Positions 1,655-53,800 of a stretch of 64,000 nucleotides of DNA are shown piece by piece (position 1 is the stretch's first letter; every line of letters begins with the position of its first letter). This DNA comes from Stegostoma tigrinum. Taxonomy: Eukaryota. The translations under genes and the position numbers were made by a program. The DNA is taken from NCBI RefSeq assembly GCF_030684315.1, contig NC_081373.1, positions 31,721,989-31,785,988 of the forward strand, written 5' to 3'. Under the pieces are notes generated by a model that saw only the letters and a list, made by a program, of their open reading frames with translations, searched no databases and was not told where the DNA came from.

Positions 1655-3940
1655 CTGGTGCAAAAAAACATATTAAATACATTAGTCCTTAAAATTTGTA
1701 TTACAATTGATGTCCGTAAACCAAGTCAATATTTTTCTACTGCAAAGTATCAAACCTCACATAGAACATTACAGCACAGTAAGGCCCTTCGGCCCTCTAT
1801 GTTATGCTGACCTGTCATACCGATCTCAAGCCCATCTAACCTACACTATTCCATGTATGTCCATATGCTTGTCCAATGATGACTTAAATGTTCCTAAAGT
1901 TGGCGAATCTACTACTGTTGCAGGCAAAGCGTTCCATTCCCTTACTACTCTCTGAGTAAAGAAACTACCTCTGACATCTGTCCTATATCTTTCACCCCTC
2001 AATTTAAAGCTATGCCCCCTCATGCTCGCTGTCACCATCCTAGGAAAAGGCTCTCCCTATCTAACCCTCTGCTTATTTTATATGTCTCAATTAAGTCACC
2101 TCAACCTTTTTCTCTCTAATGAAAACAGCCTCAAAAGCCTCAGCCTTTCCTCGTAAGACCTTCCCTCCATACCAGGCAACATCCTAGTAAATCTCCTCTG
2201 CACTCTTTTCAAAGCTTCCACATCCTTCTTATAATGCGGTGACCAGAACTGTACGCAATACTCCAAGTGCGGCTGCACCAGAGTTTTGTACAGCTTCACC
2301 ATAAACTCTTGGTTCCAGAACTCGATCCCTCTATTAATAAAAGCTAAACACTGTATGCCTTCTTAAAACACTGTATGCCTTCATAATTGTTTGTTGAAAT
2401 CTTTATTTTATTGACACACAAAAGTTAGTATATTTTCTGTTCTTGGGTTAATGACGTTCTAACTAGTCTGTATGTGTTAAATGTGATATGTACATCAACA
2501 TTACCTGTCCCAAAACCAAGCTTGATGTCAACCATTGATGCGGGAGAGTTGTTGTTCTCTTCAAACTGTAAAGGAATAACTTCACTCCACATCCTAAAAG
2601 CCATTCTCAACACATGTTTCTGGTCTTCGATGGAGAGCTGGTGGCTATAACCTTCTCCCATCAGGCGCCAAGTAAGTTTTGCTTTAGAAAAGGCCATTTC
2701 TGGTACTCTATTAAACAAGTCAGGGCGAACAGGCACCTTCTGTTGACTGGGAAAAAGCAGTAACTCTAAAAAACGCTTCTTGCGAACCTTTGAGGTTACG
2801 GTCATGTTGGTACCACTCTTGTTATCAGTTGTTTTATCGAAATCAGTGGCTTGGTTGAGAATATCTTGTGTCTCATTATCCATCAAGCTATCTTCAGACA
2901 CAACTCTATCTGGGACCCCACATCGCGGTTTGTTCATAGCTTCCTGGGTGGCTTTGTTTAGCTCTCCAGTCACGGGGATCCCATTGGCCTTCTGGAACTG
3001 TTTTAAAGCTTCAATATAGGCAGAGTTTTTCGTGGACTCAGCTTGACGTTGTTGCCATTGTTTGGAAGCTGAGGAGCCTTCCCTGATAAGATCCAACAAA
3101 TCTCTAGGAGCGCGATGCTCACCTGCAAAGTTCTCAGTTTTCTGGCGTTGGATGTTCTCCCACTTTATTTGTTCTGTCCATCCATATTTATGCAGATATT
3201 TCTTGAATAAAAAATATATTTTCCCAAATTCAGTAAACATGATATAGCGAAGTTTAACAGATAAACGTGCAAATGAAACAAAGGAGAAAATGCTGGAAAT
3301 AGTGCGCTAAATCTGTGGGCAGAACGAGCCTTGGGTCAACGACTCTTGGTCAGAACTGGTATGTAAAACTCGTTAAGCTACTGGTTCAGGTCGCATCTTA
3401 CGCAATTCCAGATCGCCTGAAACTGCGGTCAAATTTCTTCCTCAATTCAGCCACATCATATCAACACATCTGACTTAAAACTGCAGCCCTACCCTTCATA
3501 AGATAATGAAATGTGAGGCTGGATGAACACAGCAGGCCCAGCAGCATCTCAGGAGCACAAAAGCTGACGTTTCGCGCCTAGACCCTTCATCAGAGAGGGG
3601 GATGGGGTGATACAGCCCTACCCTTTAGACAGGATAGGCAAAGGTTGCTCAGATCCTAGAGAAACAGCATTCCAACCAAATATGAAAGTATCATCTCCTC
3701 AAATGCATATCAGTGCATTCATGATTAATCAATTTGCAACATTCCACAATGAACCATTTCAGCAATAATTAATGTTCAACTGTGCTTTCCTACCTCAGCT
3801 GCAGTTTGGCTCAGAATGGGACGTGCCCGGTATTCTGAAGATGAGATGTCCGAGTGGTCGCGACGATGAAACAGTCTCTCACAGTTCCCCCAGGTAATGA
3901 CGCTGAGCCACAACACTCTCAGGTATAAGACCAGCGGCAT
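1515..3940 (-). CDS. MMP21: Matrix metalloproteinase 21, 5' part (coding exons 1-3); catalytic HExxH and hemopexin exons lie beyond the left edge
   Basis: Exons 3940-3794, 3201-2505 and 1654-1515 join in frame with GT-AG junctions. They encode a signal peptide, LFHRRDHSD, cysteine switch PRCGVPD, furin site RKKR and [25 protein letters not shown]. Located next to UROS as in other vertebrates. Confidence 0.93.
1761..2382 (-). mobile_element. CR1 LINE 3' fragment (MMP21 intron 2)
   Basis: [21 protein letters not shown]...RGHSFKL...[14 protein letters not shown]; TTCTAT tail. Confidence 0.88.
2505..3201 (-). CDS. MMP21: MMP21 exon 2 (697 nt; prodomain and start of catalytic domain)
   Basis: KYLHKYGW...PRCGVPD...RKKR...WRLMGEGYS...KLGFGT; acceptor ttattcaag, donor GTAATG. 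Confidence 0.93.
3497..3612 (-). mobile_element. Short PLE pseudo-LTR insertion in MMP21 intron 1
   Basis: Matches the PLE 3' end; 13-bp TSD CAGCCCTACCCTT at 3484-3496 and 3613-3625; hammerhead core at 3566-3593 with a stem II mismatch. Confidence 0.85.
3794..3940 (-). CDS. MMP21: MMP21 exon 1 (147 nt)
   Basis: [31 protein letters not shown]...TAAE then GTAGG donor; hydrophobic signal peptide. Confidence 0.85.
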
Positions 3941-4759
3941 GCTGACGATTACTAGCCGATCTGGCCAACGCGCGGAAATCTTCGGTTTATGTAACAAAAG
4001 CGCTCACCCTGTCTCAACACACATTCACCAAACTTCAAAAAATCTCTTCGAGTTTCGCAAACACTCTGTCCAATCCCACCCGCGGAGTACATCGACTCTC
4101 TGAATTCTGAGGTTATTTGTTAACGGATCAATGGTATATTTACAGTAGTGCTGGCTTCTGCATTTAAAAAGGTGAGGTGCTTTGTAAAATGAGATTTGTA
4201 ACCAGGATGAGGTCAGTGTCTTGTTTAGACTTTTAAAGTTGGTAAACTCCAGTTATTTCAGTTATGTAAATTTGATAGCTGTCGAAATTTAACAGTTATG
4301 TAAAGTTGACAGCAATGAAAATTCCATAGCCATCTGGGGCTTGAATCATCTGGTCTTCTCAGCCTAATGTGAAAAATTGACTTTGAATTAATAAAATTTT
4401 GTGTTTCGAGCCTATTTTCCTGAATTTGTTTCACACTTAAAACTAGTGTTTTAAACAAGAAGAATTCAAATTGCCCCATTATTGACCTTGTTTACAATAA
4501 TTGGTAAATATAAATTTGAGGACTTCCATTTTGTACAGGGCTTTTGAGAATGCCACGCCGAAAGGAATGCAGTTGATGTTTCTAGCAAATTTTTGCTGAA
4601 AATTGAACGAGCCTGTAGAATTTCAGGCTGTTGATGAAGGCAACCTGTAAATTTTACCGTCGACTGCAATTTAAAGGTTAACTTATTCAGGTGTCAGGAA
4701 AAGTGTGAATCAATCCAACCAAACTTTAGCCTTTTGCAAAATCACTTTCAAGGATACAC

Positions 4760-5440
4760 GATAATAAAATGTGAGGCTGGATGAACACAGCAGGTCCAGC
4801 AGCATCTCAGGAGCACAAAAGCTGACGTTTCGGGCCTAGACCCTTCATCAGAGAGGGGGATGGGGTGAGGGTTCTGGAATAAATAGGGAGAGAGAGGGAG
4901 GCGGACCGAAGATGGAGAGAAAAGAAGATAGGTGGAGAGGAGAGTATAGGTTGGGAGGTAGGGGACAGGTCAGTCCAGAGAAGATGGACAGGTCAAGGAG
5001 GTAGGATGAGGTTAGGAGGTAGGATGAGGTTAGTAGGTAGGAGATGGAGGTGCGGCTTGGGGTGGGAGGAAGCGATGGGTGAGAGGAAGAACAGGTTAGG
5101 GAGGCAGAGACAGGTTGGACTGGTTTTGGGATGCAGTGGGTGGAGGGGAAGAGCTGGGCTGGTTGTGTGGTGCAGTGGGGGGAGGGGACGAACTGGGCTG
5201 GTTGTGGGATGCGGTGGGGGAAGGGGAGATTTTGAAGCTGGTGAAGTCCACATTGATACCATTGGGCTGCAGGGTTCCCAAGCGGAATATGAGTTGGTGT
5301 TCCTGCAACCTTCAGGTGGCATCATTGTGGCACTGCAGGAGGCCCATGATGGGCATGTCATCTAAAGAATGGGAGGGCGGAGTGGAAATGGTTTGCGACT
5401 GGGAGGTGCAGTTGTTTGTTGCGAACCGAGCAGAGGTGTT
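4760..5440 (-). mobile_element. 5'-truncated PLE (end of endonuclease plus pseudo-LTR with intact hammerhead core at 4824-4851)
   Basis: Near-identical to 14912-15570; [21 protein letters not shown]. Confidence 0.88.
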
Positions 5441-6200: not shown

Positions 6201-9200
6201 AATAAGAGAATTGTGTAACAGTGTGCAATTTGGCTGTTGCAATTACCTATAGAGAAACAGTGACACCTCTGTAGGCGTACAAAGAAAATTCCGGGTCTTC
6301 AGCAACCAAAACCAATGATAAAGCAACTCTGAGACTTGGTTAGCATCCATATCCCTGAAATGGGAGGCCGGGATCAAGTCCCACCTATTCCAGAGCTGTG
6401 TAATAACATCTCTGAACAGGTTGATTAAAAAACAATTAAATAAAGAAAAAAACTGCATTGGCCCAGACCTGCTGGAAATGTAGAAGAGTCTGTTTCTGGC
6501 TGACGGCAGCAATGAGGACAGTTATAATCAGTGTCACTCAGACATAGAAGAGATGGAGGGAAGAAATCAGAAGTAGATGGCCTATTTGACTGTAAATATA
6601 TCAGTTCTTTTCTGAGGTCTGATTCACCATGATTAGACATGTACCGTACCTGGAAGGAAGATCTCTGATAAACTCACATTACTTAGAGATACAATCACCT
6701 ATGGGCAGGATAGTAGGATGGGTACCTTCTTCATTAACTTGAACCAGAAGGACCTTGACAAAATATTGCACATTTGGAGGCTCTCCAAAATAGGACTTGT
6801 GGTGGAAGTCTGCAAATGTATCCACTATTCTGACAAATATCAGTAGCAACATCTCAATCAATACTGAAAAGTTTTTTTGACAGTCCAATGACTTGTTTAT
6901 GAGTTCTTTCAAACCTTTGTCTGAGCCCATCAAGAGGGATGTGGGCACTATAAAGATTACAATTTCAACAAATAGAGGTGTTCAGGTCAAAGCTTCCTTG
7001 CACATGGATGATCTATTTTGTCCCCTTCACTGTTAAGTTACTGTATCAGAAGATGCTGGAGATTTAGTTTGGCATTATTTGGAGTTATACCAAAACTCAA
7101 AAAGAAAATCTGGCAATGGTGGATCTGTCAGAGGTCTTCCTGTCAAAATAATTTGCTAAAATGTCTCCTGTCTTGGAATTTTCAAACAAGCACTAAGCTG
7201 TCACTTGGCCGTAGGGGAGAAAAGCTAACACATCAGTCATTCCTGCATGCCTGGAATCCCATATCTTTGCATAGCAGCTGTGATGGGAAGAGGCTATTGT
7301 CCATCTCCACCTGGAATATGCCTTTGCAAAGCTGACGGAAAGAATTGGAATACTTTTCTGTCAGATATGACATAGTTTTTTCGAAGGGTTTTCCATTTGA
7401 CAGCCAGCCTATTTGATGAGTTCCCTGCTTGTTGGACAAAAAATGCTGCAAATAACTAACTGTGAAGAATCATGAATGAGTAGGGATAAAAAAGAAGAGA
7501 CTGCTGGAGAAACTCTGCAGGTCTGGATGCATCTGTAGAGAGAAAAACAAGAGTTAACATTTAGAGTCCAAAACTGATTCTTCTTTGGAACTGTACAAAG
7601 CAGCAAAAATATGAGTCTTTATGCTGTTGAAAAACTGGGGAGGTAGAACAAGCAACAGATGGAAAAGGTGCCCAGAGCGTAAGGCAAAGGGGATGCTGAT
7701 GGTAACACAAGACAAGGAAGCCCAGAGATATCACATTTCCAGCTACCTTCAGTTACAAAGAGAATTATATTGGACTTGAAAGGTTTAAATTTGTATCTGG
7801 CACTTTCAATTTTTATCTGAGATCTCTAGCATCCATAGTACTTTGCTTTTAATGGGGAAGGTGTAGGTCATAGTCACAGGAAAGGTTTGGGGTTTTGGAT
7901 GTGGTTTTTGAAAGAGGTTGATTCCAGTTACGATCATGGGAAGACAAACCAGTTTCAGTCGTGGTCACAGAGGTTTGGCAATCATGGACCAGGAAACAGG
8001 TTAGTTACTCCTACTGCTACTCCTCACCCACAAACAGAACTGGTAAATTTCCAATACAATATATAGGTGGTGTTCTTGGACACTGCCCTTCTCAAAGCCT
8101 TATGTTCACGAAGTCCATGATGTTGGAAACTTGATCAAAATGGATTAGAAGAACCTGTTAAAAAGAAGGCACACAGTCCTCTTATCAGATTTAGCAGACA
8201 CGGCCTTTCACCTGAGGGCAGATTGGTTGCCTGTGATCCGCTCCAACTTTGTTAAATATGCAAGTAGGTGGGTTTAAGACTGGTTGGTGGAATGTTTAAA
8301 ATTTTTCAAACATTAATGTCTCGCCAAACCCCAATTTAGCTGTTCTTCGGGCTTAAATTACCCTTGGTGTGTTAAAATCCTGTCCTCTAATTTACTAGAT
8401 TTGTAAAACTACAATATTCATTGGTTATCAAATATTGTAAAAATAGTGCTGCAGAAAAACTGAAAATTTTATTCATGTTCACGGCAAACAATAACTCCCA
8501 CAAAGATACTTTTATTCACCAATAACCAAAGTGTAGCTTTCTGCACTTGACTCTGATCCTGACTCAATTTTGTGGTCAGTGGTGAAATAGTGATGTGTGC
8601 CACTTACCTCAAAGGCAGTTGCCTTCTACAGAGTTTTGTGGTGTGGTGTTCCTCTTCCTCAGTGGCTTTTTAAGTCTTGCATCAAGTCAAAGTGATGTCA
8701 TTAGCTTGTAGCAGCACTGATATCAGCAAGCATGTTAAACAGCCAAACCCATTGAAATATGCATACACATAAAAAAAGTTAAAGCACAACACCCGACACT
8801 TTTAATTTATATTTTCAGGTAACAACAAAATTATGGTCCAACTAAAACAAGCTAAAAGAAGCTAGTATGAAGATAAGCCAGGCTTATGGAATTTTAAGTG
8901 TAACACATTATAATAAAGAAATATAACATTCTACAAATATTACTCTCCTCTTTTAAAGCTGGTAAGGGAGTTTAGCAGTAATTATGAAAATACTACCCTT
9001 AAAAATCCAGCTGCATTTCAATCAACAAAGTATAACCTTTTCGAGATTTCTATAGTGAGGCTAATAGGTAGGAGTGGAAATTGTGTCAATTTGTAAAATT
9101 TCTCACTGATTGCAGTTTGGAGATGCCTCCAAAATGAGCCCACTACGGTGACATAGAATCTTCTGTTTTTTTGTATTATTCCACACTTCAGAAGGCGTAG

Positions 9201-9939
9201 TCAGTTTCAGTGGAGGAACAGAAGTAAAAACTCTTCAGCTTTCCCCAGTGCAATATTTCGGCCATTGTTAAGTATCAATGATGTACTTCATCCTTCTCTT
9301 GTCAGTGTTTATCAGAGAAAAATTAATATCGGGACTATAAGTTTTGAAGTTTCAGTAAGCAAAAGCAGATGAACATCTCACTTAAATACAAAATTTCCAA
9401 TTTATCACCATTGTATTCCAGTCATGAATTATTTTAAAAGTCCTTGCTGTTTCAACCATTGGCAAACAGAAATTACTCAGTGAATACAGATCACTAGCCT
9501 CAGCTCTTCTTGTCCTTTTAAAGTCTAAACTATATTAAAATAAGTTAGATATTGCTCAGGATTGATAAACGAAATGACATATTGCAAAGCATTTTAGCAT
9601 CAATATTAGATCCAAAAATCAAATTTGCTCTTAAAAATATACAGAATCCTGCTAAGATGCCAGTCTCTGGTCATTTAACAATCAACAGAACATTGCAGAA
9701 ATGAATGGTAAATAAGACCACAGTCTTATAGCTCAGTTTGGATTCAGGTCAGCAAGTTTATTGAAATGGAGTAGTATGCACGTATCTTTGCTCTGACTGC
9801 CACTCCAAAGACAAAACAGAGGTAAAGCGTTTGGAAACAAAATATAACTTTGATAAAAATATAAGGTTATGTACAGAAAAACAAACTGTTGCCTAATTGA
9901 ATGCAGTTTAGCAAATCTCATACACAATAGCTTAGAGAA

Positions 9940-10205
9940 GGTGATGGTATAGTGGTAATATCACTGGAATAGTAATCCAGAGGCCCAGGTTCGTGTGTTT
10001 GAATCCCAAAATGGCAGATAGTGAAAATTGAACTCATTTTCAATCCATAATAAAAAGCTAGTCTAATGGCAACATATAACCACAGTTGATTGTCCTAAGA
10101 AAAAAAATCTGGTTCACTAAAGTCCTTTAGGGAAGGAAATCTATCATTCCTGCCTGGTCTGGCCTACAAGTGATTCCAGACCCATAGCAAAAGTGGTTAA
10201 CTCCA
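9940..10205 (+). mobile_element. DeuSINE (SacSINE1-like); a second partial copy is on minus at ~55660-55750
   Basis: tRNA-like head and ctggttcactaa.gtcctttagggaaggaaat...ctggtctggccta...ccagaccc core. Confidence 0.6.
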
Positions 10206-10795
10206 ACCTCTACCCAATTCTTATTAGTGAATAAATCCTGCCCTGAATGTCAACTCTTAGATCTTATAGTTTGAAATAATATGTATAATTTAAATATGTT
10301 ACCATCAATCTGAATAATAAGCATTCTAATGGGATGGCCCACACATACTTCACAAAATCCAGTCACCATCACTCCCAAATTGTTATCCAAAAAAATGTTT
10401 GCAAAGGTTAGAATCCAATAGTTTGGTGTTTATATTACAGTGCTGCTAGACTTTCATATTAACTTAGAAAAAAATCAAGATTTCTCAAAATATTTGGGCA
10501 AGATATAAAAAATTGTGCACTATAAATGAGATACTAACTTATAAAGAGATTTCTTATATCTTTGTATCAGTCTGACTAAGCAACACACAATTTCCAAGGG
10601 ATTCACAAATATAAATGCATTTTAGAAAATCAGGTTACAGAAATTAACTAACTAAAGTGAAATTTCCTGATTTAAGGTAACTTTAAAGGGTAGGAAACAT
10701 AAGGCTCCAATCTAAACAGAATCTAAAGAAAGAAAGGATGCTAAATAAACAACCATTTTAGTCATAAAAAGAAAAAGAAACAAATGTTTTACTAA

Positions 10796-11020
10796 GATAA
10801 TAAAATGTGAGGCTGGATGAACACAGCAGGCCCAGCAGCATCTCAGGAGCACAAAAGCTGACGTTTCAGGCCTAGACCCTTCATCAGAGCCTCTGATGAA
10901 GGGTCTAGGCCCGAAACGTCAGCTTTTGTGCTCCTGAGATGCTGCTGGGCCTGCTGTGTTCATCCAGCCTCACATTTTATTATCTTGGAATTCTCCAGCA
11001 TCTGCAGTTCCCATTATCTC
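10796..11020. mobile_element. Fold-back PLE pseudo-LTR insertion in the UROS 3' UTR
   Basis: Inverted arms 10794-10889 and 10891-10986 (one mismatch) plus a 36-nt tail. 14-bp TSD AAATGTTTTACTAA at 10782-10795 and 11021-11034. Confidence 0.9.
10852..10895 (-). ncRNA. Minimal type I hammerhead ribozyme motif (PLE-derived), UROS sense strand
   Basis: cagaggcu-CUGAUGA-a-ggg-ucuagg-ccu-GAAA-CGUC-agcuuuug: conserved core, 3-bp stem II, palindromic ACGU stem III, 8-bp stem I with two G-U pairs. Confidence 0.55.
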
Positions 11021-11052
11021 AAATGTTTTACTAATATGTTCTTGGCACTTTT

Positions 11053-11172
11053 TTATAGCACTCTTCTTATACTAGCTGCTAGATCTTCAGCTGTAGGTTT
11101 TTCTGCGGTACAACTCACAGTCAGTCCCTCTGTTGCCATGGCATCAGCTGTTGTTGGTCCTATTGCTGCAAA
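11053..11172 (-). CDS. UROS: UROS last coding exon (120 nt including TAA)
   Basis: [39 protein letters not shown]; tttacag acceptor. Confidence 0.93.
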
Positions 11173-14100
11173 CTGTAAAGACAATAAAACAAAAAGATGT
11201 AAAATTCTTCACTCGATTTAGTTACGAGGTGAGAAGAAAGCACCTGGAAAGGCACAGTTCAAATGCAGTGAAATAAACAGGGATAATTATAGAGAAATGT
11301 GAACAAACTGAACAGAGGCTTAGAACAAAGAAGAACAAAGAAACCTACAGCACAGGAACAGGCCCTTCAGCCCTCCAAGCCTGCGCCGATCAAGATGCTC
11401 TGTCTAACCTGTCATCTATTTTCTAACGGCCTCTGTCCATTTGCTCCCGACCCTTCCATGTGTCTGTCCAAACATATCTTAAAAGACGCTAACGTGTCTG
11501 CGTCTACCACCTCCGCTGGCAACGCGTTCCAGGCACCCACCACCCTCTGTGTAAAGAACTTTCCATGCATATCTCCCTTAAACTTTCCTCCTCTCACTTT
11601 GAACTCATGACCCCTAGTAATTGAGTCCCTCACTCTGGGAAAAAGCTTTTTGCTATCCACCCTGTCTATACCCCTCATGATTTTGCAGACCTCAATCAGG
11701 TCCCCCCCAGTCTCCGTTTTTCCAATGAAAATAATCCTAAACTACTCAACCTCTCTTCAAAGCTAGCACCCTCCATACCAGGCAACATCCTGGTGAACCT
11801 CCTTTGCACCCTCTCCAAAGCATCCACATCCTTTTGGTAATGTGGCGACCAGAACTGCACACAGTACTCCAAATGTGGCCGAACCAAAGTCCTATACAAC
11901 TGCAACATGACCTGCCAACGCTTGTACTCGATACCCCGCCCAATGAAGGAAAGCATGCCATAGCATGCAGATTATAATCTAATATGGTTTCTTATGGAAG
12001 TGAGTTAGTTGACAAATCACTTTAAGCAGTTCTTTGAAAATATTCCAAAATTCCTCCATAGCATGTCACAAGCTACGTTTAAATACTGGTCTGCCACCTG
12101 TTCATTGCTACAAATAAAGAGACAGGGAAACTTGCAGACCATAGAGCCATCGGCAACCTCAGCTGGTAGCTACATGGGTGGCACTGGGAGGAGGGAGTTA
12201 AGGCATCTTTGGACATGGTGTTAGATGAGCCAACATCTGAAATGCTGATTGCTGGGTTGAGTCCAAGTGGGTGTCAACACCAGAAGAGTAACTGCAACTG
12301 TCTTCATTATTTCAACACAAACTCTTTTTGCACAACTGCTATAGTCAAGCAAAACAGAATATTGCTCATTCATTAAACATGTGGTATTAGTCTCTGGTTG
12401 AAGCAATAGATAGAGTGGATAGCCAGAGACGTTTTCTCAGGGCGGAAATAACTTACAAGTTTTTAAAGTGATGGGAGGAAGGTATAGGGAGATGTCAGAG
12501 GTAAGCATATGGAATGTGCTGCCGGCAGTGGTAGTGGAGTCAGATACTTTAGAAACTTTTAAGCGACTCTTGGATAGGCACATGGAGGATAGTAAAATGT
12601 AGGGTATGCAGGGTAGTTTGATCTTAGTGGAATAATCGTTCGTCACAACTTTGTGGGCCAAAGAGCCCGTACTGTGCATTTCTGTTCTATGTTCTATGTG
12701 CTTAACAATGTTTAATAAAACAGAAAATAACTGGAAAATATTGAGCAGGTCTAGCAGCAGAGGGAAGCAGAATTAATGGTTTGAGTCCAAGGACTCTTCT
12801 TTGGAACTTTCGTAAAGAATATTTGGACTCAAAGCATTAACTCTATTTCTTTCTCCACAGATGCTGCCAAAATTACCGAGTTTCTCCAGTATTTTTTTTC
12901 TTTATTTCTAATTTCCAGTATCTGCAATATTTTACTTTTATTTGAATGTTTAGGAAAATCTGTCTATAAATAGTATTGCAATTGGAAATGCAACAATAAA
13001 TCGCAGCATTAAGTAGTTTAAAAACAGCTATATGAGAAGCACTAAGAAAAAAAGTGCAATTTCAGCTGTCAAACATATTGTTAAGAATGAACCTTGTAAA
13101 AGTCAGATCCAGAGATTACAGTAACAATGATTATAAATTAAAAACTCATACCAAAAGAGAGAATAGCTAAAGAGAATTGCTGATTTTTTTGTATGGGATC
13201 AATCTGACATATCTGACTAAAATTAAATGATCTTAAGGGTTCCATACCCCCTGTGCCAGTGACTCAAAAAGTTGAAAAATGCTGCCATCACTTAATTTAT
13301 CTATCACAAATGAGTAGCTTCAGCTTGCAACATGCTCCACAATGCAAGGAAACATCCCGTAAAAACACAACTGCTCAATTGGCCCCACGGTATCTCTTGT
13401 TGTAAAATCAGTCAAGTACAGGCCAGAAGATATTTCCAAGAAAAGTACCTTAATTGTGTCAATGAAGGCCCCTGCCAATTTTTTGATGGTGCTCAGACAA
13501 AATTTAACACCAGATGGACTGAAAAAGGTGATAATATCTGGGATTCCCTAGTGGGAGAAAGGAAAACAGATTAATTAATTTTTCTTACCAGTTCCAAACT
13601 GTGAAATTCCATGAGAAAATGTATCTCTTGGTAGAAAAACATGCCATACTGCTATCACACATCCTAATCAGATAATTAAAAAGTCTTTGTTTTCGCCATT
13701 GTAAATATATTAGAATGTACAAGTAACATGTACAAATTTATTATATGTTTGTATCGCATTCTGCTATTCACTAATTTAGTAGAGATGTTGTCCTACATGT
13801 CTGAAATGGCTTAACATTTCCCTTCAAACTGTGCGCACAGGAATGCCCTGTGAACATAACCAAATATTTCAATGTTGGTATTGTAAACATTTATTTCTTG
13901 AGGGTGAATTTTATTTGTGGCTCAATTGGCCCTACGGTATCTTCTGTTGTTGCTTATATTTTTGAGAATAAAATCAGTCAAGTACAGACCAAAAGATATT
14001 TCCTGTTAAAAATATTTTAATGCTGGTATTGTAAACATTTATTTCTTGAGGGTGAATTTTATTTGTGACTTGATATAAACATGTTTAAATATACATTAAT

Positions 14101-17100
14101 TTTATCTATTAATGCTGGATAGGGATTTTAAGCAGGAGTCCGAGTCTCGAGTTCAGAAGCATAAATTGATCCTTATTTGGAGTTCTTTTACCACGTGACG
14201 GAGGAGAGGTCAGTGATATTCTAATTTTCCCAATAAAGTACACGATATTTACACATTCCATGTTAAAATGCTTACATGCAACACTGACATCAGTGCTTGC
14301 CACAACTCCTGTGATACATGCATCCAATACTGTGAATACATGATCAATAATGAACAACTTCCTGGTCCACCTGAGGCCCTCCCATTACTTCGTGATGTTT
14401 GTCACACCATCTGTCACCTGCCCTTGGATTCCTACGATTATTGACCAAATTCCAGCACCGATTGTTACGTCCCTTCCTACTTGCTTATTACTAATGACTT
14501 TTCAAATTTGGTCATGTAATTCATATTCCTTGCTGAAATTTCTACCAATTGTCATAATATTTGTAATATCAGCTGTCATATAAAGTTATTTATAAAGTTA
14601 TACATAGTTGAACTTAATATTACGATTCTGTGACAAAGCTAACAATTTCAGGTGACCTACTCACTGCAGTATTCCTAGCCCCCAACCTGCTCTTGTAGCC
14701 ACTGTATTTATGTGGTGAGTCCAGATAAATGTCTGGTCAATGGAAAACCCTAAGATGTTCATAGTGGTGGATTCAGTGATGATAACTCAATTGAATGTCA
14801 AGGGGCAGCAGGTGAATTGACTCTTATTAGAATTTGTCATTGCTTCGCATTGTGTTACATGAATGTTACATTCTATTTGTCAGTCCAAACTGAGAAATTG
14901 TCCACATCTCGGATAATAAAATGTGAGGCTGGATGAACACAGCAGGCCAAGCAGCATCTCAGGAGCACAAAAGCTGACGTTTCGGGCCTAGACCCTTCAT
15001 CAGAGAGGGGGATGGGGAGAGGGTTCTGGAATAAATAGGGAGAGAGGGGGAGGCGGACCGAAGATGGAGGTAAAAGAAGATAGGTGGAGAGAGTATAGGT
15101 GGGGAGGTAGGGAGGGGATAGGTCAGTCCAGGGAAGACGGACAGGTCAAGGAGGTGGGATGAGGTTAGTAGGTAGATGGGGGTGCGGCTTGGGGTGGGAG
15201 GAAGGGATGGGTGAGAGGAAGAACAGGTTAGGGAGACAGAGACAGGTTGGACTGGTTTTGGGATGCAGTGGGTGGAGGGGAAGAGCTGGGCTGGTTGTGT
15301 GGTGCAGTGGGGGGAGGGGACGAACTGGGCTGGTTTAGGGATGCGGTGGGGGAAGGGGAGATTTTGAAACTGGTGAAGTCCACATTGATACCATTAGGCT
15401 GCAGGGTTCCCAGGCGGAATATGAGTTGCTGTTCCTGCAACCTTCGGGTGGCATCATTGTGGCACTGCAGGAGGCCCATGATGGGCATGTCATCTAAAGA
15501 ATGGGAGGGCAGAGTGGAAATGGTTTGCGACTGGGAGGTGCAGTTGTTTGTTGAGAACTGAGCGGAGGTGTTCTGCAAAGCAGTCCCCAAGCCTCCGCTT
15601 GGTTTCCCCAATGTAGAGGAAGCCACAACGGGTACAGTGGATGCAGTATACCACATTGGCAGATGTGCAGGTGAACCTCTGCTTAATGTGGAATGTCATC
15701 TTGGGGCCTGGGATAGGGGTGAGGGAGGAGGTGTGGGGGCAAGTGTAGCATTTCCTGCGGTTGCAGGGGAAGGTGCCGGGTGTGGTGGGGTTGGAAGGCA
15801 GTGTGGAGTGAACAAGGGAGTCACGGAGAGCGTGGTCTCTCTGGAAAGCAGACAGGGGTGGGGATGGAAAAATGTCTTGGGTGGTGGGGTCGGATTGTAG
15901 ATGGTGGAAGTGTCGGAGGATGATGCGTTGTATTTGGAGGTTGGTTGGGTGGTGTGTGAGAACGAGGGGGATCCTCTTAGGGTGGTTGTGGCGGGGGTGG
16001 GGTGTGAGGGATGTGTTGCGGGAAATACGGGAGACGCGGTCAAGAGCGTTCTCGATCACTGTGGGGGGAAAGTTGCGGTCCTTGAAGAACTTGGACATCT
16101 GGGATGTGCAGGAGTGGAATGTCTTATCGTGGGAGCAGATGCAGCGGAGGCGGAGGAATTGGGAATAGGGGATGGAATTTTTGCAGGAGGGTGGGTGGGA
16201 GGAGGTGTATTCTAGGTAGCTGTGGGAGTTGGTGGGCTTGAATTGGACATCAGTTACAAGCTGGTTGCCTGAGATGGAGACTGAGAGGTCCAGGAAGGTG
16301 AGGGATGTGCTGGAGATGGCCCAGGTGAACTGAAGATTGGGGTGGAAGGTGTTGGTGAAGTGGATGAACTGTTCGAGCTCCTCTGGGGAGCAAGAGGCGG
16401 CGCCGATACAGTCATCAATGTACCGGAGGAAGAGGTGGGGTTTGGGGCCTGTGTAGGTGCGGAAGAGGGAATGTTCTACGTAACCTACAAAGAGGCAGGC
16501 ATAGCTGGGGCCCATGCGGGTGCCCATGGCCACCCCCTTAGTCTGTAGGAAGTGGGAAGAGTCAAAAGAGAAGTTGTTGAGGGTGAGGACGAGTTCGGCT
16601 AGGCGGATGAGGGTGTCGGTGGAGGGGGACTGGTCGGGCCTGCGGGACAGGAAGAAGCGGAGGGCTTTGAGGCCATCTGCATGCGGAATGCAGGTGTATA
16701 GGGACTGGACGTCCCTGGTGAAGATGAGGTGTTGGGGGCCAGGGAATTGGAAGTCCTGGAGGAGGTGGAGGGCGTGGGTGGTGTCACGGACGTAGGTAGG
16801 GAGTTCCTGGACCAAAGGGGAGAAAATGGAGTCCAGATAGGTGGAGATGCGTTCGTTGGGGCAGGAGCAGGCTGAGACGATGGGTCGACCAGGGCAGGCA
16901 GGTTTGTGGATTTTGGGAAGGAGATAGAAACAGGCCGTGCGGGGTTGGGGAACAATGAGGTTGGGGGCTGTGGGTGGAAGGTCCCCTGAGGTGATGACCA
17001 CATCTCGTTGCATTTGAAATTGGACCATATCAGAATCTAAGCAGTTGTGAATGATACTGAAAATTGTGCAATCAGTGAACATCCCCACTTCTGACATTAT

Positions 17101-26100: not shown

Positions 26101-29100
26101 TCTGCCATTCATTCTGACCATTGAGTTTACACCAGATCTTTCATAAAGAAATCCAGCTAAACTCACTATCCTGACCTTTCCTGATATCCCTTCATTCTTT
26201 TCTTCATCAAATATTATCAAATTGTCTTATTGCTATTGAATCAGTTTCCATCACCCCATCAGTGGACTCTGCAATCACAATAAAGTGTGCCCTCTCGTTA
26301 CCAATCTTCCATTCAGTCCAGGTTTGATCCCTTGTGCTGCCTAGCTGACTGATCTCAGCTAAAGTTGTAATTGGGCACTACTACATCCTACAGCCATGCG
26401 TATTATCAAGTTCATTTCTACTAGAAAGTACATAATATTGTGCTACCTGGTGACTTTAATCATGCAAGCATGCAGCTATTACTAAATGAGTACTTGCTTG
26501 TGGGTGGGGGTGAATATTGAATATCAAAGACTCTGCTTAATAGTGAGATATAAATTAAAGACTTTTGCAAGCACAAATGTGGCAGAAACAAGCAAGTGAT
26601 CAAGGGTCTAGGCCCGAAACGTCAGCTTTTGTGCTCCTGAGATGCTGCTTGGCCTGCTGTGTTCATCCAGCTTCACACTTTGTTATCTATGAAATGCTAA
26701 TTTCTTTGAGATTGTCTTGGGGTCTTTGGTACAGGCAATACTGAGGAGGAGGCACTTCCTGATCCTCCGATGTTATGTCTTCAATGTAATAAAATGCCAC
26801 AAGGGCACTTCATGGGATAAAACAATATTTGATTTTAAGTCTCACAAGCATATGTTAAGGCAGAAAGACTTGATCAAAGAGGGAACTTTTAAGAACTGTT
26901 TTAAAGGGAGGAAACAAAAGACGGAGATAACAAAGTGTAGAGCTGGATGAACACAGCAGGCCAAGCAGCATCAGAGGAGCAGGAAGGCTGTTTTGGGCCT
27001 ATACCCTTCTTCAGAAAAGTCAGAGCTGTTTAGAATAGCTAGTACAAGAGGCCAATTTGTCTACTGTATTTGTACAAGCTTCCTGCAAGAGCAATTCAGC
27101 TTGTTCCATGCCTCTCCTTCTTCCATAGTCTTACAATTTCTTTTTTCTTCATTTTTACTCAATTTCCTTTTGAAAACCATGAGCGGATCTGCCTCTACTA
27201 CACTACCAGGCATTGCATTCCAAAACATAACATGCTGTGTATGAAAGATATTCCTGATGTTGCCATTTGTATTTTGCCATTCACCTTATACTGTACTATG
27301 GTGCTTGACTTTTCTATAAGGTAGTGAATTCCAGAGGTTAGGACCTAGACAACATATAGTTATTGAATGATTCAACACACTAGATATAAAAATCAGCTCT
27401 TTTTCAGCCAACGTGAGCATTTTATGCATAAGGCAATATTTTAAAAAATTCAGTTACAATTTACCAGCATAATGTAAGCCCTGATGTTTTCTGTTCTACT
27501 ATCCTTCACAATCTTGCCTTTTCCCAACTGTCCCTTACTAGACCTCTAGCATTTTGATAAACCTTGGTCCTTGACTGATAATTACACTTAAAGATGTAGC
27601 AGTAGTCTGAATTGGCATTACAATTCGCTAGATCACGATAAGCATTCAAACTTCACTTTCACAGTATGTACATTTACCAGAGTACTGATTAATAATATTT
27701 GCTTACTTACTCTGACTGTTATTGCGCATGCATATACAATACACATAGAACTAAGTTTTCTTACCCAATTTGGCTGTAGATTTTCCAACAACATAGACAG
27801 ATTTTTCTTTCCACTTGTCTTTTAAAATGTTGTTATTCCATTCTATTGACAATAAAAATGGAGATTTGGAAACATGATGAAATATATTAAGATTTTTGAT
27901 ACAACATTCTATCTTTATGTCAACAGCTTTCCTAATCATTACTAAATCTATGGAATCAAATTTAAAAAAAAATCAGTGAACATATTTATTACAGTAGAAC
28001 CATTAATATGCTTCAAAATTTATGTATGCATTGTGTAGATATAAAGTACGTACAACTTGTTGGATCCATAATAATTTCATTGTGTAATAACCATAATAAT
28101 CTTTAAGCACAAAAACAATTATTGTTCTTCTCCTACCAAGATTATAGTACTTCACACTTCGTTCCGTATTTAAGATTATAGCAGGCTAGATTTTTCAGTC
28201 AGAAGTGAAGCAATTTATAATTTACAGATAGCAAATACGTGGTTTAAATATGTAGAATGGATTAAGATAAAAGCTAAAATGTTGTAATATTTTTAAATTT
28301 TAGCATTATGTGGAATTTCTTATAATGGATAAATTTGATATTAGAGATTATAATTAGTTTTTTAGTTGACAGAACTTGTGTTTTGCTGAAAAAAGACACA
28401 TTTGTCAAAGGTTTTTACATTGCACTCATCAGGTCAATTCACAACTTTACCAATTTAAGGGGGAAATACCAACATTTATGATGCAGGAGAGAAGTATGTT
28501 GTTGTTCCGGACTGCTCGCACAAAAAAATAACAGCTAGTGAACTCAAGTTACCCAAGCTTCAGCTGGTTAGCAAAGTGGGTTGATTGGAAAAGACATCGC
28601 CAAATGAGATTTCACCAGTTAATGATGATTGACAGTTAGCTGTTAAGCTTTGTTCAAATTTTAAACCAGGCAGATTAACTTTGATTAGACAATCAGCAAA
28701 TGGTTGTTACCTACTTTGTAGTCTTGAAACACGCATGTTTCATGTTTTTTATGACTGCAAATAACAGGCCCTGTGTATTAATATATGTAGCTTCTAACAC
28801 ACAATTGTGCCACACTATAAGCCCAACTAACAATTGTAAATTGGCTGTAAGAGTAATTCTTTCCACACCCCAGGACTCTCATGCAAATATTGTCCAAATG
28901 AATTGTGATTCTACAATGCTGAAAACTATTGAGTTTCCCCTTAAATTAGACTATTAGAATAGTCCAAATGAATGCTGCAACAAAATCTGTCTTTTTTCAG
29001 TAAATATAAAATTACTCTTTCAGGGATACTTAGCAGTAATTTATGAACTTGTTATATCATTAAAAACCTAGTTACAGTACATTCAATAAAATATAACTTT

Positions 29101-44270: not shown

Positions 44271-44445
44271 TTAGGATCAGGTGTGGAGCTGCAAGAACAC
44301 AGCAGGCACGGCAGCATCAGACGACCAGGAATTCCCGATGTTTCGGGTGTGGACCCTCCTTCAGAAATCTCCTCTCTATTCCTATTCCCACCGCGCCCCC
44401 ATTCCAGGTCCGCCCTATATCTACAATACTACAGACTTATTTCTC

Positions 44446-44839: not shown

Positions 44840-47800
44840 GTGAGAAAAATAACGGTCGACCCAACCGTCACCGCCCGCGAGACGGGTTTAGAACCCGAGC
44901 GCGCGCAGCCACTGGGGAGGTGGGGAGCACAGAGAGCGGGAGAGACTAGAGGATACAGGAGGTGAATTAGGCCATTCAGTCCATCAAATCTTCTCCAACA
45001 TGGCCGATGTCTTTCTCAATCCCATCCTCTTGCCTTCTGTTCTCCCCATCGCCATCTCCGCCTCAAGAGGTAGCAAGAACTGCAGATGTTGGCGTCAGCG
45101 AAAATACAGCGTGGAGCTGGAGGAATACAGCAGGCCAGGCAGCATCAGAGGAACAACTTTCCGGCTGCCCTGGCTCCCTGTGTTCTTCCAGCTCCACAGT
45201 ATTATCCCCACAATAACCCTTCATCCCCCTTACTAATCAACAACCTATCTGTTTCTTTTCAAGAGTGAGAGAGACTCAGGACGGAAGAGAAATGGATATG
45301 GACACAAGTGGAAAAAGTCAGGGTAGATAAGATGGAGTAGTGGAGATTGGGTGTGTTGAGGGAAATGGGAAATGGGAAAGGGTAGTGGGGCAGAGGAGAG
45401 GGTAAAATTGTATCAGAGATAATGGGAACTGCAGATGCTGGAGAATTCGAGATAACAGAGTGTGGAGCTGGATGAACACAGCAGGCCAAGCAGCATCTCA
45501 GGAGCACAACAGCTGACGTTTTGGGCCAAGGCCCTTCTTCAGAAAAGGGGGAGGGGGAGGCAGATTGAAGAAGGATAGAGGAGAAGATAGGTGGAGAGGA
45601 GACAGACAAGTTAGAAGGGCAGGGATGGAGCCTGTAGAGGTGTGTGCAGGTGGGGAGGTAGGGAATGGATAGGTCAATCTGGGGAGGACGGATAGGCCAA
45701 GGGGGTGGGGTGAGGTTAATAGGTAGGAAATAGAGGTGCGGCTTGAGGTGGGAGGAGGGCATAGGTGAGAGGAAGAACTGGTTAGGGAGGCTGGGATGAG
45801 CTGGGCTGGTTTTGGGATGCAGTGGGGGGGGGGAAGAAGGGAGATTTTCAATCTTGTGAAATCCACATTGATACCATTGGGCTGCAGGGTTTCCAAGCGG
45901 AATATGAGTTGCTGTTCCTGCAACCGTCGGGTGGCGTCGTTGTGGCACTGCAGGAGGCCCCGTATGGACATGTCGTCTGAGGAATGGGAGGGGGAGTTGA
46001 AATGGTTCACGACTGGGCGGTGCAGTTGTTTATTGTGGACCGAGCGTAGGTGTTCTGCAAAGCGGTCCCCATGCCTTCACTTGGTTTCCCTGATGTAGAG
46101 GAGGCCACAACAGGTACAGCGGATGCAGTATACCACATCGGCAGATGTGCAGGTGAACAACTGCTTGATGTGGAAGCCCGCCTTGGGCGTGGGATGGGGG
46201 TGAGGGAGGTGATGTGTGGGCAAGTGTAGCACTTCCTGGGGTTGCAGGGGATAGTGCCGGGCGTGGTAGGGTTGGAGGGGTGTCTGGAGCAGACAAGGGA
46301 GTCACGGAGAGAGTGGTCTCTCCGGAAAGCAGACAAGGGTGGGGATGGAAAAATGTCTTGGTGTTGGGGTCAGATTGTAGATGGTGGAAGTGTTGGAGGG
46401 TGATGCGTTGGATCCGGAGGTTGATCGGGTGGTATCTGAGGACGAGGGGGATTCTCTTTTGGTGGTTATTGCAGGGACGGGATGTGAGGGATGAGTTGCG
46501 GTGAATGCAGGAGGCATGGTCGAGGATATTCTCGAACACTGCGGGGGAAGTTGTGATCCTTGAAGGATGAGTTATGTCTGGGATGTACGGGAGTGGAATG
46601 CCTCATCCTGGGAGCAGATGTGGCGGAGGTGATGGAATTGGGAATAGGGGATGGAATTTTAGCAGGAAGGTGGGTGGGAGGAGGTGTATTCCAGGTAGCT
46701 GTGGGAGTCGGTGGCCTTGAAATGGATATCGGTTTCTAGATGGTTGCCTGAGATGAAGACAGAGAGGTCCAGCAAGGTGAGGGATGTGTTTGGAGATGGT
46801 CCAGGTGAACTTCAAGGACCGCGACTTCCCCTCCGCAGTGGTCAAGAATGCTCTCGACCGTGTCTCCCGCATTTCCCGCAACTCATCTGTGATTCCCTTG
46901 TCTGCTCCACACTCCCCTCCAACCCCACCACACCTGGCACTTTCCCCTGCAACTGCGGGAAGTGCTACACTTGCCCACACACCACCTCCCTCAACCCCAT
47001 CCCATGCTCCAAGAAGACCTTCCACATCAAGCAGATGTTCACCTGCACATCTGCCGATGTGGTATACTGCATTTGCTGTACCTGTTGTGGCCACCTCTAC
47101 ATCAGGTAAACTAAGTGGAGGCTTGGGGACTGCTTTGCAGAACACCTATACTTGGTCTGCAATAAACAACAGCACCTCCCAGTCACGAACCATTTCAACT
47201 ACCCCCCCCTTTCATTCCTCAGACAACATGTCCATCCTGGGCCTCCTACAGTGCCACAACAATGCCACCCGAAGGTTGCAGGAACAGCAACTCGTATTCC
47301 GCCTGGGAACCCTGTAACCCAATTGTGTCAATGTGGATTTCACAAGCTTCAGAATCTCTCCACCCTCCCCCCTCACCACCACTGCATCCCAAAACTAGCC
47401 CAGCTCGTCCCCACCTCCCTAACCTGTTAGACCATAAGGCCATAAGACATAGGAGTGGAAGTGAGGCCATTCAGCCCATCAAGTCCACTCCGCCATTTAA
47501 ATCATGGCTGATGGGCATTTCAACACCACTTCCCTGCACTACCCCCCGTAGCCCTTGATTCCTTTTGAGATCAAGAATTTGTCGATCTCTGCCTTGAAGG
47601 CATCCAACGCCCCTGCCTCCACTGCACTCTGCGGCAATGAATTCCACAAGCCCACCACTCTCTGGCTGAAGAAATGTCGTCTCATTTCAGTTTTAAATTT
47701 ACCCCCTCTAATTTTAAGGCTATGCCCACGGGTCCTAGTCTCCCTGCCTAACGGAAACAACTTCCTAGCGTCCACCCCTTCTAAACCATACATTATCTTG

Positions 47801-50800: not shown

Positions 50801-53800
50801 CCCCCTTTTCTGATGAAGGATCTAGGCCTGAAACGGCAGCTTTTGTGCTCCTAAGATGCTGCTTGGCCTGCTGTGTTCATCCAGCTTCACACTTTATTAT
50901 CTCGGAGGAGCAGATAGTTGCGCAGTGGGCAAAAGTTGGAGGATGATAAGAAAGGGAAGAAGTTGGAGGGAAGGGGACAAGAAATTGGCGGAAGGGTTGA
51001 AGGGGAGGGGACAAGGAAGGTGAGAGAGCCCAATTGATTTGGACCACCTCCGCCTTAATCACTCAATTCACCATCTCTGTGTTGCAAAATACACTGCAGC
51101 CATTCACCAAGGTTCCTTCTCAACTTCCCAAACTCATTTGCCAAATTGGTTGCATTTCCAAGTTGCTTGTGTTGAAAATATGTATTCATTCTTTTACTGT
51201 CACTATGGTAAATACTAGAGGCCCCTATGTAACCGCAGTGGTGCAAGGTGGCATCTTGCCGCCATCTTGGTAATTGCAGATGGGTTAAACGATACTGACT
51301 TTGCTGCTGGTGTCCCACCCTCTATGGTGTTAATGCCTGCATATGTTTACAAATATTTCTGTTCTGCAGGAAGTGCAAGTAGATTTTGAAGCGCATGCCA
51401 TATCTGACAATGATCATAATGGAATCAAGAGACTGTTGCAACAGGTAACTTTGAAAATGTGAGATTTTTTTAGGTGTAGGTTTTGTGTGGCTAATTTAGT
51501 GCCAATTTACAACAGTTGTAATGCTGCATTTCATTGTTTTTCCTTTTGCAGTTATTTCTCAAGGCCAGTATCAACATCATTGAACTAGCTAACATCATAA
51601 TTCAACAAAATCATGTTGGAAGTGTTATTCGGGTATGTCAACTGAGTTGGCTTTGTTCTTAAGTACTATCACAGAGTACCTGATCAAAACTGAGAAAGAT
51701 AATAATAGCTTTTTTCCCTGCTTGATCTTCATATTTTTAAAATAGATTTTTGAGCTTGAAAATTGAGCTTAAAGTTGCAAATAAATTTGGTTTGTCATTT
51801 GGTCAAATTAGCTCATAAAAATTGCAGATTCTGATACAGAGTCTGGTTAGGCATGTTTTGATAATTCCAGATTATTCTGCAATGTTTCATGTATTTCATA
51901 TGATTTAACCAACATAAACATGAGACCTATGCAAAGATGCTGTTGTATGAGCAGATGGCATTAGTATCCCTGCGATGACTTCCTTATGAAATGCAACTAT
52001 TATTTGTAAACTTGTTTCAGAGTTGAGTTTGTACAGCAATTGGTACTGTTCAAGGTATGTAGTTAGCATGATTGCCTACATGTGAAAGTTATATTCTCCT
52101 CCAACATGTAGTGAAGGCAATCCTGTTACTGCTACTTATGAAATTTTATAGCTATCTTCTCAGGCCAGTTATCCAAGGAGAATAGTTTGTTGGTAATTTG
52201 AAGTAGTGCTCCTTTCACTCGGGGGTCAAAACATCACAACAAAAAATGTTGGAGTACAAAGCAAGTCAGTGATCTGAAGAAGAAAATTGGATTAATGTTT
52301 TTGCCCTGACAGTTATGTTCATAATAATGATGTTGGAATGTGCTACTGGAAGTATCTTAAAAAATTAAGATGAGAATGGTCTGGCGACATCTGTGGAGGA
52401 GAAAACAGAGTTAACGTTTTGGACTTGGTGACCCTTCCTCAGAACTCAGAACAGTTCTAGGCGGTATGGTCACCGGAACCAAAACATTAACTCTGTTTTC
52501 TCCTCCACAGATGCTGCCAGACCTGCAGAGCTTTTCCAGCAACTTTGTTTTTGTTCCTGATTTACAGCATCGGCAGTTCTTTTGGCTTTTAAGATGAGAA
52601 CGGTTCTTGATTTACTAATCTGACTGCTTGATATTATTAACACACTTTGCACTGTTTGGTGCCATGTGAATCATATTCATAGTATGCTTCATATTTGATA
52701 TTAGAGAAATTTGAAAGTCAGTGAAGTGTCTTGGGTTCAAAAGAGAAACTGGATGTACTTATTCTGAAGTACTCCTAGGTATTAAATGGAAATAAGACTT
52801 GTATGAATTGTTTAGCTTGAATTTATGCTTCACTGCATTGTATAGATTAATCCTTTTATATTTTAAAGCAAGCTGAGATATTGGATGGAAGTAATGAAGA
52901 AGATGACGAAGATGACATCTTTGGGTTCATCACTGCTATAAATCTGACTGAAAGAAAGGTAAATACGCCATTCTTAACTGAGTTTGTAAATTGCTTTATT
53001 TGTGTTTGAATTTACATGCAACTGATTTCTAATATAGAAATTAAGCTGGTTATTGTATGTTTTCTTCGACTGTTTTGAAAATCGTCTTTAGGACCAGTGC
53101 ATTTAATAGTGATTAAATACTGCAACTAATCTCTACATTTATGTTAATATCAGTTGTTGAAATCGGAATCCTTGGCATTTTTCCCTGAAGAAGGGAAGTA
53201 GTCGGGTTCACCACCTTTTGAAGCAGGCAAACCACTCTTAAATTTTTCCAAGCATTTTTGGAAATAAGAATTATGCCAGATGGCTAGAGAGTGACAAATG
53301 TTATGTCCCTGTTCAAAATTGAAAAGGGTAGGGCAATAAATTATTGGTCATTTGGTTTCATGGTCATTCTGGGTTAACTTCTAGAATTTGTTAGTTATGA
53401 CTAGAAATATGGCAGTGAGCCGCAAATATGTGAATTAGCAGGACAAGTGCACTCAGCCCCCTGAGCCTCCTTTGCTATTCAGTAATGGTTGATCTGATTA
53501 CTGTACATTCCCAGCCATCCTTGAATTCTTGTGCACGAGCAAATTGAGAATAGTCAACAGATTTGTAAACACAGGTAATGCTTAAACAATGAGAATGAAG
53601 TTGATAGATATGTAAGTTTTGCCATCTAAAACATGGTGTATATATAGAAATGCTCAAGAAAGATCTAAGAAAAGGGTAAATGGATTTTATTTTAACTTAC
53701 TGAATAGTGATGCTCCCTAGGAGCTGCTGCAGGAATTTTTTTGTTGTTCTCTTTTACAGATTTTAAATATGTATTTGGGAATTATCAAAATTTTGCCAAA

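Follow-up and report, generated by a model that had tools for sequence, protein, structure and literature searches.

A young insertion of two Penelope-like element (PLE) ends, joined head to head, lies just downstream of the last coding exon of UROS in the 64 000-nucleotide stretch of DNA analysed here (the window). We consider it probable that this insertion is a passenger of the UROS 3' UTR, in which it is predicted to form a fixed 95-bp hairpin that would keep its hammerhead motif silent.

A head-to-head pair of PLE ends follows the UROS stop codon

The initial annotation had described a 225-bp insertion with two inverted arms, a single arm mismatch and a TSD, and these coordinates hold (Table 1). 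The repeat spans 14 bp, or 15 bp when an ambiguous C that is also the last base of the element is counted. The distance of 32 nt from stop codon to insertion and the position given for the TAA were also correct, the exon matching Pfam HEM4 (E 6.8e-7, 29.1 bits, cut-off 27.5). The paired stem begins 66 nt after the stop. The sole difference between the arms, at 10868/10912, becomes a G-U pair when the minus strand folds, so that the arms pair essentially fully on the UROS sense strand, as had been proposed. The computed minus-strand fold has about 95 pairs, a 3-nt apex loop and an energy of -206.9 kcal/mol (z -27), and none of 200 shuffled sequences folded as well.

Table 1. Features of the insertion and its surroundings, in window coordinates.
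Feature	Position	Strand	Remarks
Last coding exon of UROS	11053-11172	-	TAA 11055-11053; Pfam HEM4 match
TSD copy near stop	11021-11034	.	14 bp; target present once in the organism C contig
One-sided pseudo-LTR tail	10987-11020	+	34 nt; unpaired in the hairpin
Inverted arms	10794-10889 and 10891-10986		96 nt each; 99% complementary; 1-nt spacer
First arm in UROS mRNA	10891-10986	+	Pseudo-LTR, element-sense; intact hammerhead core 10893-10920 antisense to UROS
AATAAA from first arm	10976-10981	- (UROS sense)	72 nt after stop
Apex base, head-to-head junction	10890	.	27-nt junction with 200 identical occurrences genome-wide
Second arm in UROS mRNA	10794-10889	-	Inverted pseudo-LTR; element-derived portion 10796-10889
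Minimal hammerhead motif, UROS sense	10852-10895	-	Stem I 10895-10888/10859-10852; no stem III loop
Hammerhead details	core 10887-10881; stem II 10879-10868	-	C11.1U at 10868; predicted cut after 10860
TSD distal copy	10782-10795	.	14-bp direct repeat partner of 11021-11034
Downstream UROS 3' UTR	9732-10781	-	AATAAA at 9762-9757; end probably near 9732
Single-arm copies (eight in all)	3500-3608, 4757-4853, 14912-15005, 26597-26698		74-99% identity, several ages
Remaining single-arm copies	26925-27015, 44282-44365, 45416-45543, 50809-50906		Same PLE family

The insertion consists of two pseudo-LTR ends, set head to head and without an ORF, from a Penelope-like retrotransposon that is abundant in the genome. 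Its identification as PLE ends was borne out by sister copies carrying an RT motif and GIY-YIG, and by agreement with the PLE layout given in passages of PMC3846280 and PMC8557442, where an inverted pseudo-LTR meets its partner head to head at a palindromic junction, with a TSD and an optional tail of 31 bp. Because the longer sister copies hold upstream frames with a YIDD RT motif (L025) and with GIY-YIG (among the first 30 core loci), the element is an endonuclease-positive (EN+) PLE. Both of the proteins scanned (2/2) matched Pfam GIY-YIG with E-values of 1.6e-4 and 3.3e-4, at scores 0.3 and 1.3 bits below the cut-off, and Pfam RT gave no match on the truncated upstream frame of a sister copy. 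L033 and L034 contain a C-x4-C-x2-C motif; the linker criterion of the Neptune clade is CX2-5CxxC between RT and endonuclease. A MITE was ruled out by the tail-out arms, the one-sided tail and the family tie to an RT/GIY-YIG ORF.

Genome-wide, the 31-nt core of the element had 96 925 exact matches. Head-to-head junctions numbered 1316 by a narrow pattern and 5929 by a wider pattern at the same point, and the 27-nt apex junction of the UROS insertion recurred in 200 identical occurrences; all of these copy and junction counts are sequence-pattern matches. In a sample of 400 kb (forty 10-kb stretches at round coordinates), 14 head-to-head pairs were found among 77 matches, which scales to about 112 000 fold-backs of all ages in the genome (61 000-188 000). 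Fold-back hairpins of the family occurred about once per 29 kb of the sample and could supply introns and UTRs with large amounts of endogenous dsRNA. Forty-five sister fold-back loci were fetched, 39 of them distinct. The tail was on exactly one arm in 34 of the 39, a TSD of at least 10 bp was present in 30 (14-15 bp in 19), and 16 had no more than one arm mismatch. An inverted repeat in a UROS intron (12759-12854; 40 nt, 78% complementary, 16-nt spacer) partly resembles the element end and probably goes back to an ancient fold-back event in a related family.

Among described elements, the insertion most readily invites comparison with the EN+ PLEs of the Pen2a_Av type from Adineta vaga. In passages of PMC3846280 and PMC8557442, inverted pseudo-LTRs likewise stand head to head around a palindromic junction and are flanked by a TSD. 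The hammerhead in the pseudo-LTR and the family ORF with an RT motif and GIY-YIG are also shared, as is a tail on one arm (34 nt at UROS, 30-40 bp and optional in those descriptions). Unlike Pen2a_Av as described there, the UROS insertion has no ORF or internal sequence between its arms and is therefore wholly hairpin; it also differs from the rotifer PLEs of these passages in its longer TSD (14-15 bp versus 8-10 bp) and in its location in a host 3' UTR. No description of the UROS insertion was found among the literature listings searched, in which one paper combined sharks, Penelope-like elements and hammerheads; the supplementary hammerhead alignments of PMC4209133 may hold shark motifs. Only the placement at UROS is new; the kind of insertion is known.

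According to passages of PMC11167929, both strands of the target are extended in vitro by a purified PLE protein, which begins copying at two internal RNA sites that delimit the tail. We infer that the UROS insertion arose by priming from both strands and the joining of two short copies. A staggered cut of 14-15 bp would be made and both strands would prime reverse transcription, which would start at the element's two start points, the arm end on one side and the tail end on the other. Both copies would stop just 5' of the hammerhead core and would then be joined.

The insertion is young

In organism C, a related species (run X18), one contig of 2381 nt covers both flanks with a single target copy, and the site is therefore empty there; this contig differs from the window at 44 positions in 686 UTR nt. 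Comparison with the majority of 75 sister arms (75 of 78; three were too divergent and were dropped) revealed two differing columns only in the UROS arms. One is common to both arms and was therefore inherited from the source copy, and the other, a C-to-T change at a CpG, is the arm mismatch. Since the site is empty in organism C and the arms stand so near the sister majority, these comparisons place the insertion well after the divergence from organism C. There is no sign of function from conservation, the insertion being young and absent from the one relative with cover (1/1). Organism B (run X11) had no cover of the exon, hence no call of presence or absence, and no empty allele was seen among the organism A matches listed.

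The hairpin is probably part of the UROS 3' UTR

Cover of the locus was assessed with contigs of X4-X6, X11 and X18. In X4, X5 and X18 the exon contigs break off at 11174 and leave the intron uncovered, a loose end being listed for X5 and X18. Because they stop at the splice junction without intron cover, they were read as RNA; no run, X4-X6 included, is on record as RNA, and it is the splicing that points to their RNA nature. The spliced X4 contig runs 26 nt into the tail with no differences. A second X4 contig (9732-10818, 0 differences) starts 23 nt inside the second arm and ends 24 nt past the AATAAA at 9762-9757, and a GU/U-rich run lies behind this 3' UTR end near 9732. X6 supplied a contig at 9756-10139 and X5 contigs at 10107-10520 (second study), while the X5 exon contig extends 4 nt into the insertion.

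The hairpin is probably part of a UROS 3' UTR of about 1.3 kb. The earlier proposal that the insertion lies within the UROS mRNA stands in that contigs enter it from both ends and run on for about 1 kb to a poly(A) signal; it falls short in that the X4 entries, at 26 and 23 nt, are below the 31-letter standard for bridging. X4 and the probable source of the assembly belong to the same study. Depth over the exon contig and downstream was 42 versus 10.8 in X4 and 62 versus 66 in X5, a measure that is unfit to rank parts of a gene; the drop in X4 might reflect transcripts that are lost or that terminate early at the hairpin. The gaps in cover (10521-11016 in X5, above 10139 in X6) carry no evidential weight.

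The downstream RNA was not ascribed to a convergent gene, since the nearest gene observed beyond UROS lies on the UROS strand. The exon by which that gene is recognized (2425-3306, minus strand, downstream of UROS) is a matrix metalloproteinase exon with a cysteine-switch motif, and we take it to be MMP21-like from this motif and human synteny. In organism C, a UROS 3' UTR contig reaches about 8473 (8473-8516), 1.2 kb beyond the X4/X6 end, and may reflect an alternative or shifted poly(A) site.

Predicted effect of the hairpin on UROS output

If the insertion is a passenger, the UROS mRNA would carry the hairpin, ADAR would probably edit it, and UROS output would be little changed because the duplex begins as close as 66 nt after the stop. 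Passages of PMC3458544 report that mRNAs with inverted Alu elements in their 3' UTRs are edited, exported and stable, with translation repressed only when the duplex is far from the stop; in HeLa reporters, the effect on translation was lost with the duplex 65 nt from the stop. By this analogy we predict that the UROS hairpin is edited yet nearly neutral, the neutrality being extrapolated from human reporters with Alu duplexes. As in the inverted Alu pairs of that source, a transposon-derived intramolecular duplex is an expected ADAR substrate, and its distance from the stop is near that of the inactive 65-nt construct. Unlike those pairs, the UROS duplex stems from one insertion event, is shorter (95 bp) and near-perfect, and has a 3-nt loop.

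The ribozyme could be silent while the hairpin itself, acting as a dsRNA element, alters UROS output through editing-linked retention, binding of Staufen or PKR, or Dicer products. Sensors of dsRNA are served better by a near-perfect duplex of 95 bp than by Alu pairs. The great stability and near-perfection of the duplex and the transcript cover on either side of it are in keeping with such an effect, as are excerpts reporting that some human inverted-repeat 3' UTRs cut reporter output 2- to 5-fold (PMC3458544) and that inverted-repeat mRNAs are retained in the nucleus (PMC4378195). We nevertheless regard it as unlikely. In the first of these sources, duplexes placed 15-65 nt after the stop had no effect, and export and stability were unchanged; the insertion is moreover young and unconserved. 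By chance, young fold-backs would be expected in the 3' UTRs of 19-56 genes (from 5929 junctions, assuming 10-30 Mb of 3' UTR).

Early polyadenylation would remove the hairpin altogether: a substantial fraction of UROS mRNAs might end at the AATAAA of the first arm, a signal that the initial annotation had overlooked, and so contain neither the hairpin nor the sense hammerhead. The hexamer, at 10981, is canonical, lies close to the stop and is transcribed about 180 nt ahead of its pairing partner. Against this, no U/GU-rich run was found behind it, and contigs from three runs (two studies) cover the UTR past the hairpin, two of them ending near the AATAAA at 9762. It is improbable that the first-arm signal accounts for much of the UROS mRNA. 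In every antisense arm of the young subfamily an AATAAA is present, and insertions could give host genes poly(A) signals.

If the UROS insertion is the passenger that we favour, it is one of thousands of similar scars. It could then serve to mark the species, and would show by natural experiment how well a cell of the cartilaginous-fish type copes with a housekeeping mRNA that contains a near-perfect duplex of 95 bp.

The hammerhead motif is likely held silent by the hairpin

All core letters of a minimal hammerhead (CUGANGA, GAAA, UH and the palindromic 15.2-16.2) are present on the UROS sense strand between 10887 and 10860. The motif was read by eye against a published minimal descriptor, given that Rfam matched no hammerhead at its gathering score in the window and none at E<=10 within 10700-11100. 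The 15 Rfam matches within 10700-11100 were of a generic miRNA-hairpin type, all below the cut-off, and were rejected. The arrangement is that of metazoan PLE minimal hammerheads and of anole Poseidon in passages of PMC4209133 and PMC11167929: CUGAUGA, an extra base, stem II, GAAA, palindromic ACGU and UC, without a stem III loop. It differs from those motifs in that the UROS sense copy faces its full complement in cis, has a G10.1-U11.1 pair and takes its stem I from the junction.

Sense stem I has 8 bp (2 G-U, 3 A-U) as against 2 bp in the plus-strand copy and in 3/3 parental copies tested in the window, just as the initial annotation had counted. The longer stem is not special to UROS: the identical junction recurs 200 times, and 40 of the first 50 junctions listed give a stem I of 6-8 bp on one strand (same pairing rule, counted by hand). 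The longer stem I is a generic by-product of fold-back. The arm mismatch, in a point that the initial annotation had missed, falls on position 11.1 and converts the conserved G10.1-C11.1 pair to G-U in the sense copy (10879/10868). The pair is unbroken in the copy antisense to UROS, and C occupies 11.1 in 67/75 sister arms. The change shifts the computed energy of stem II from -3.7 to -2.0 kcal/mol. Passages of PMC4209133 call the G10.1-C11.1 pair highly conserved, and no measured rate for the kinetic cost of G10.1-U11.1 was found in literature passages on hammerheads.

In computed folds with stems I and II forced, the hammerhead-constrained ensemble lay 49-61 kcal/mol above the free hairpin ensemble. 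From 10880 onward, that is, once eight core bases exist, the computed pairing of the core with the first arm exceeded 90%. Because the complement, the first arm, is transcribed before the core, no cotranscriptional window would be left for the hammerhead. In the isolated 44-mer (10895-10852), a mispaired core was favoured by 2.4 kcal/mol, and the dimer preferred a non-hammerhead duplex. These energies leave proteins out of account. According to the models, the hairpin likely keeps the hammerhead silent, in line with the fallback already offered, that the more stable hairpin silences the ribozyme.

In passages of PMC4209133, minimal PLE hammerheads failed to cleave as monomers and cleaved at a low level when dimeric; in those of PMC11167929, the anole hammerhead cleaved only in the presence of the element's protein. 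It is conceivable, with a very slight chance of being right, that one insertion gave the UROS mRNA a hammerhead with a lengthened stem I by fold-back, and that editing, a helicase or the element protein opens the UROS hairpin, so that the abundant element transcripts pair in trans with the UROS mRNA and cut it, which would couple heme synthesis to transposon activity. In a more modest form of this reading, fold-back insertions would generate perfect dsRNA in the 3' UTRs of dozens of genes of this animal, each in a single step.

The initial annotation had suggested a gained switch between hairpin and self-cleavage. In a fuller form of this proposal, the UROS mRNA would alternate between hairpin and self-cleaving hammerhead, with the help of dimers, element protein or editing, and so tune heme synthesis. 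This would be a rare one-step recruitment of a transposon ribozyme to control a metabolic gene. It could draw on the complete core letters and the 8-bp sense stem I, on some 97 000 intact cores as potential partners in trans, and on the junction counts given below, which hint that the family's ribozyme can cut; a hammerhead in the rodent Clec2d 3' UTR lowers reporter output (passages of PMC2950038). The proposal is nonetheless highly improbable and is not sustained by our results, given the energy gap of 49-61 kcal/mol in favour of the hairpin, the closed cotranscriptional window, C11.1U, the missing stem III loop, the preferences of the isolated 44-mer, a stem I shared with 200 loci that carry the identical junction, and the absence of the insertion from organism C. 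The UROS motif resembles the rodent and mammalian Clec2 case in that a hammerhead core sits in a host 3' UTR. According to the passages of PMC2950038, mammals in general conserve the Clec2 hammerhead, which folds in cis and was shown to be active; unlike it, the UROS motif is unconserved, requires a partner and is predicted to be buried.

Fold-back chimeras are a known type of assembly error and the evidence includes no raw read across the apex, but the probability that the palindrome arose in this way is negligible, in view of the TSD, the one-sided tail, the single arm mismatch, the empty site in organism C, the X4 contigs that enter the insertion from both ends and the thousands of similar junctions with varied apexes in the genome.

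Fold-back junctions at the predicted cut site

Another group of fold-backs, together with copies truncated at the 5' end, starts at the predicted cut (L087-L091, L132-L151), several-fold more often than at neighbouring palindromes. Genome-wide, 710 fold-back apexes lay near the predicted cut, 659 were spread over stem II and 103 lay further 3'. Among the first 50 listed near the cut, 39 were centred exactly on the four bases after it and 4 on the palindrome just before it. Germ-line cleavage by the ribozyme of this family is hinted at by these junctions, which may be a fossil of cleavage in vivo; alternatively, microhomology at the same palindrome could yield cut-site junctions. The statistics bear on whether PLE hammerheads cut in vivo, which is a matter for the family. 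Copies whose match starts at the cut numbered 1031, compared with 242 starting three bases upstream, the two patterns being unequally strict. Inspection of 20 cut-start copies showed 10 flagged as fold-backs, and several of the others were small deletions.
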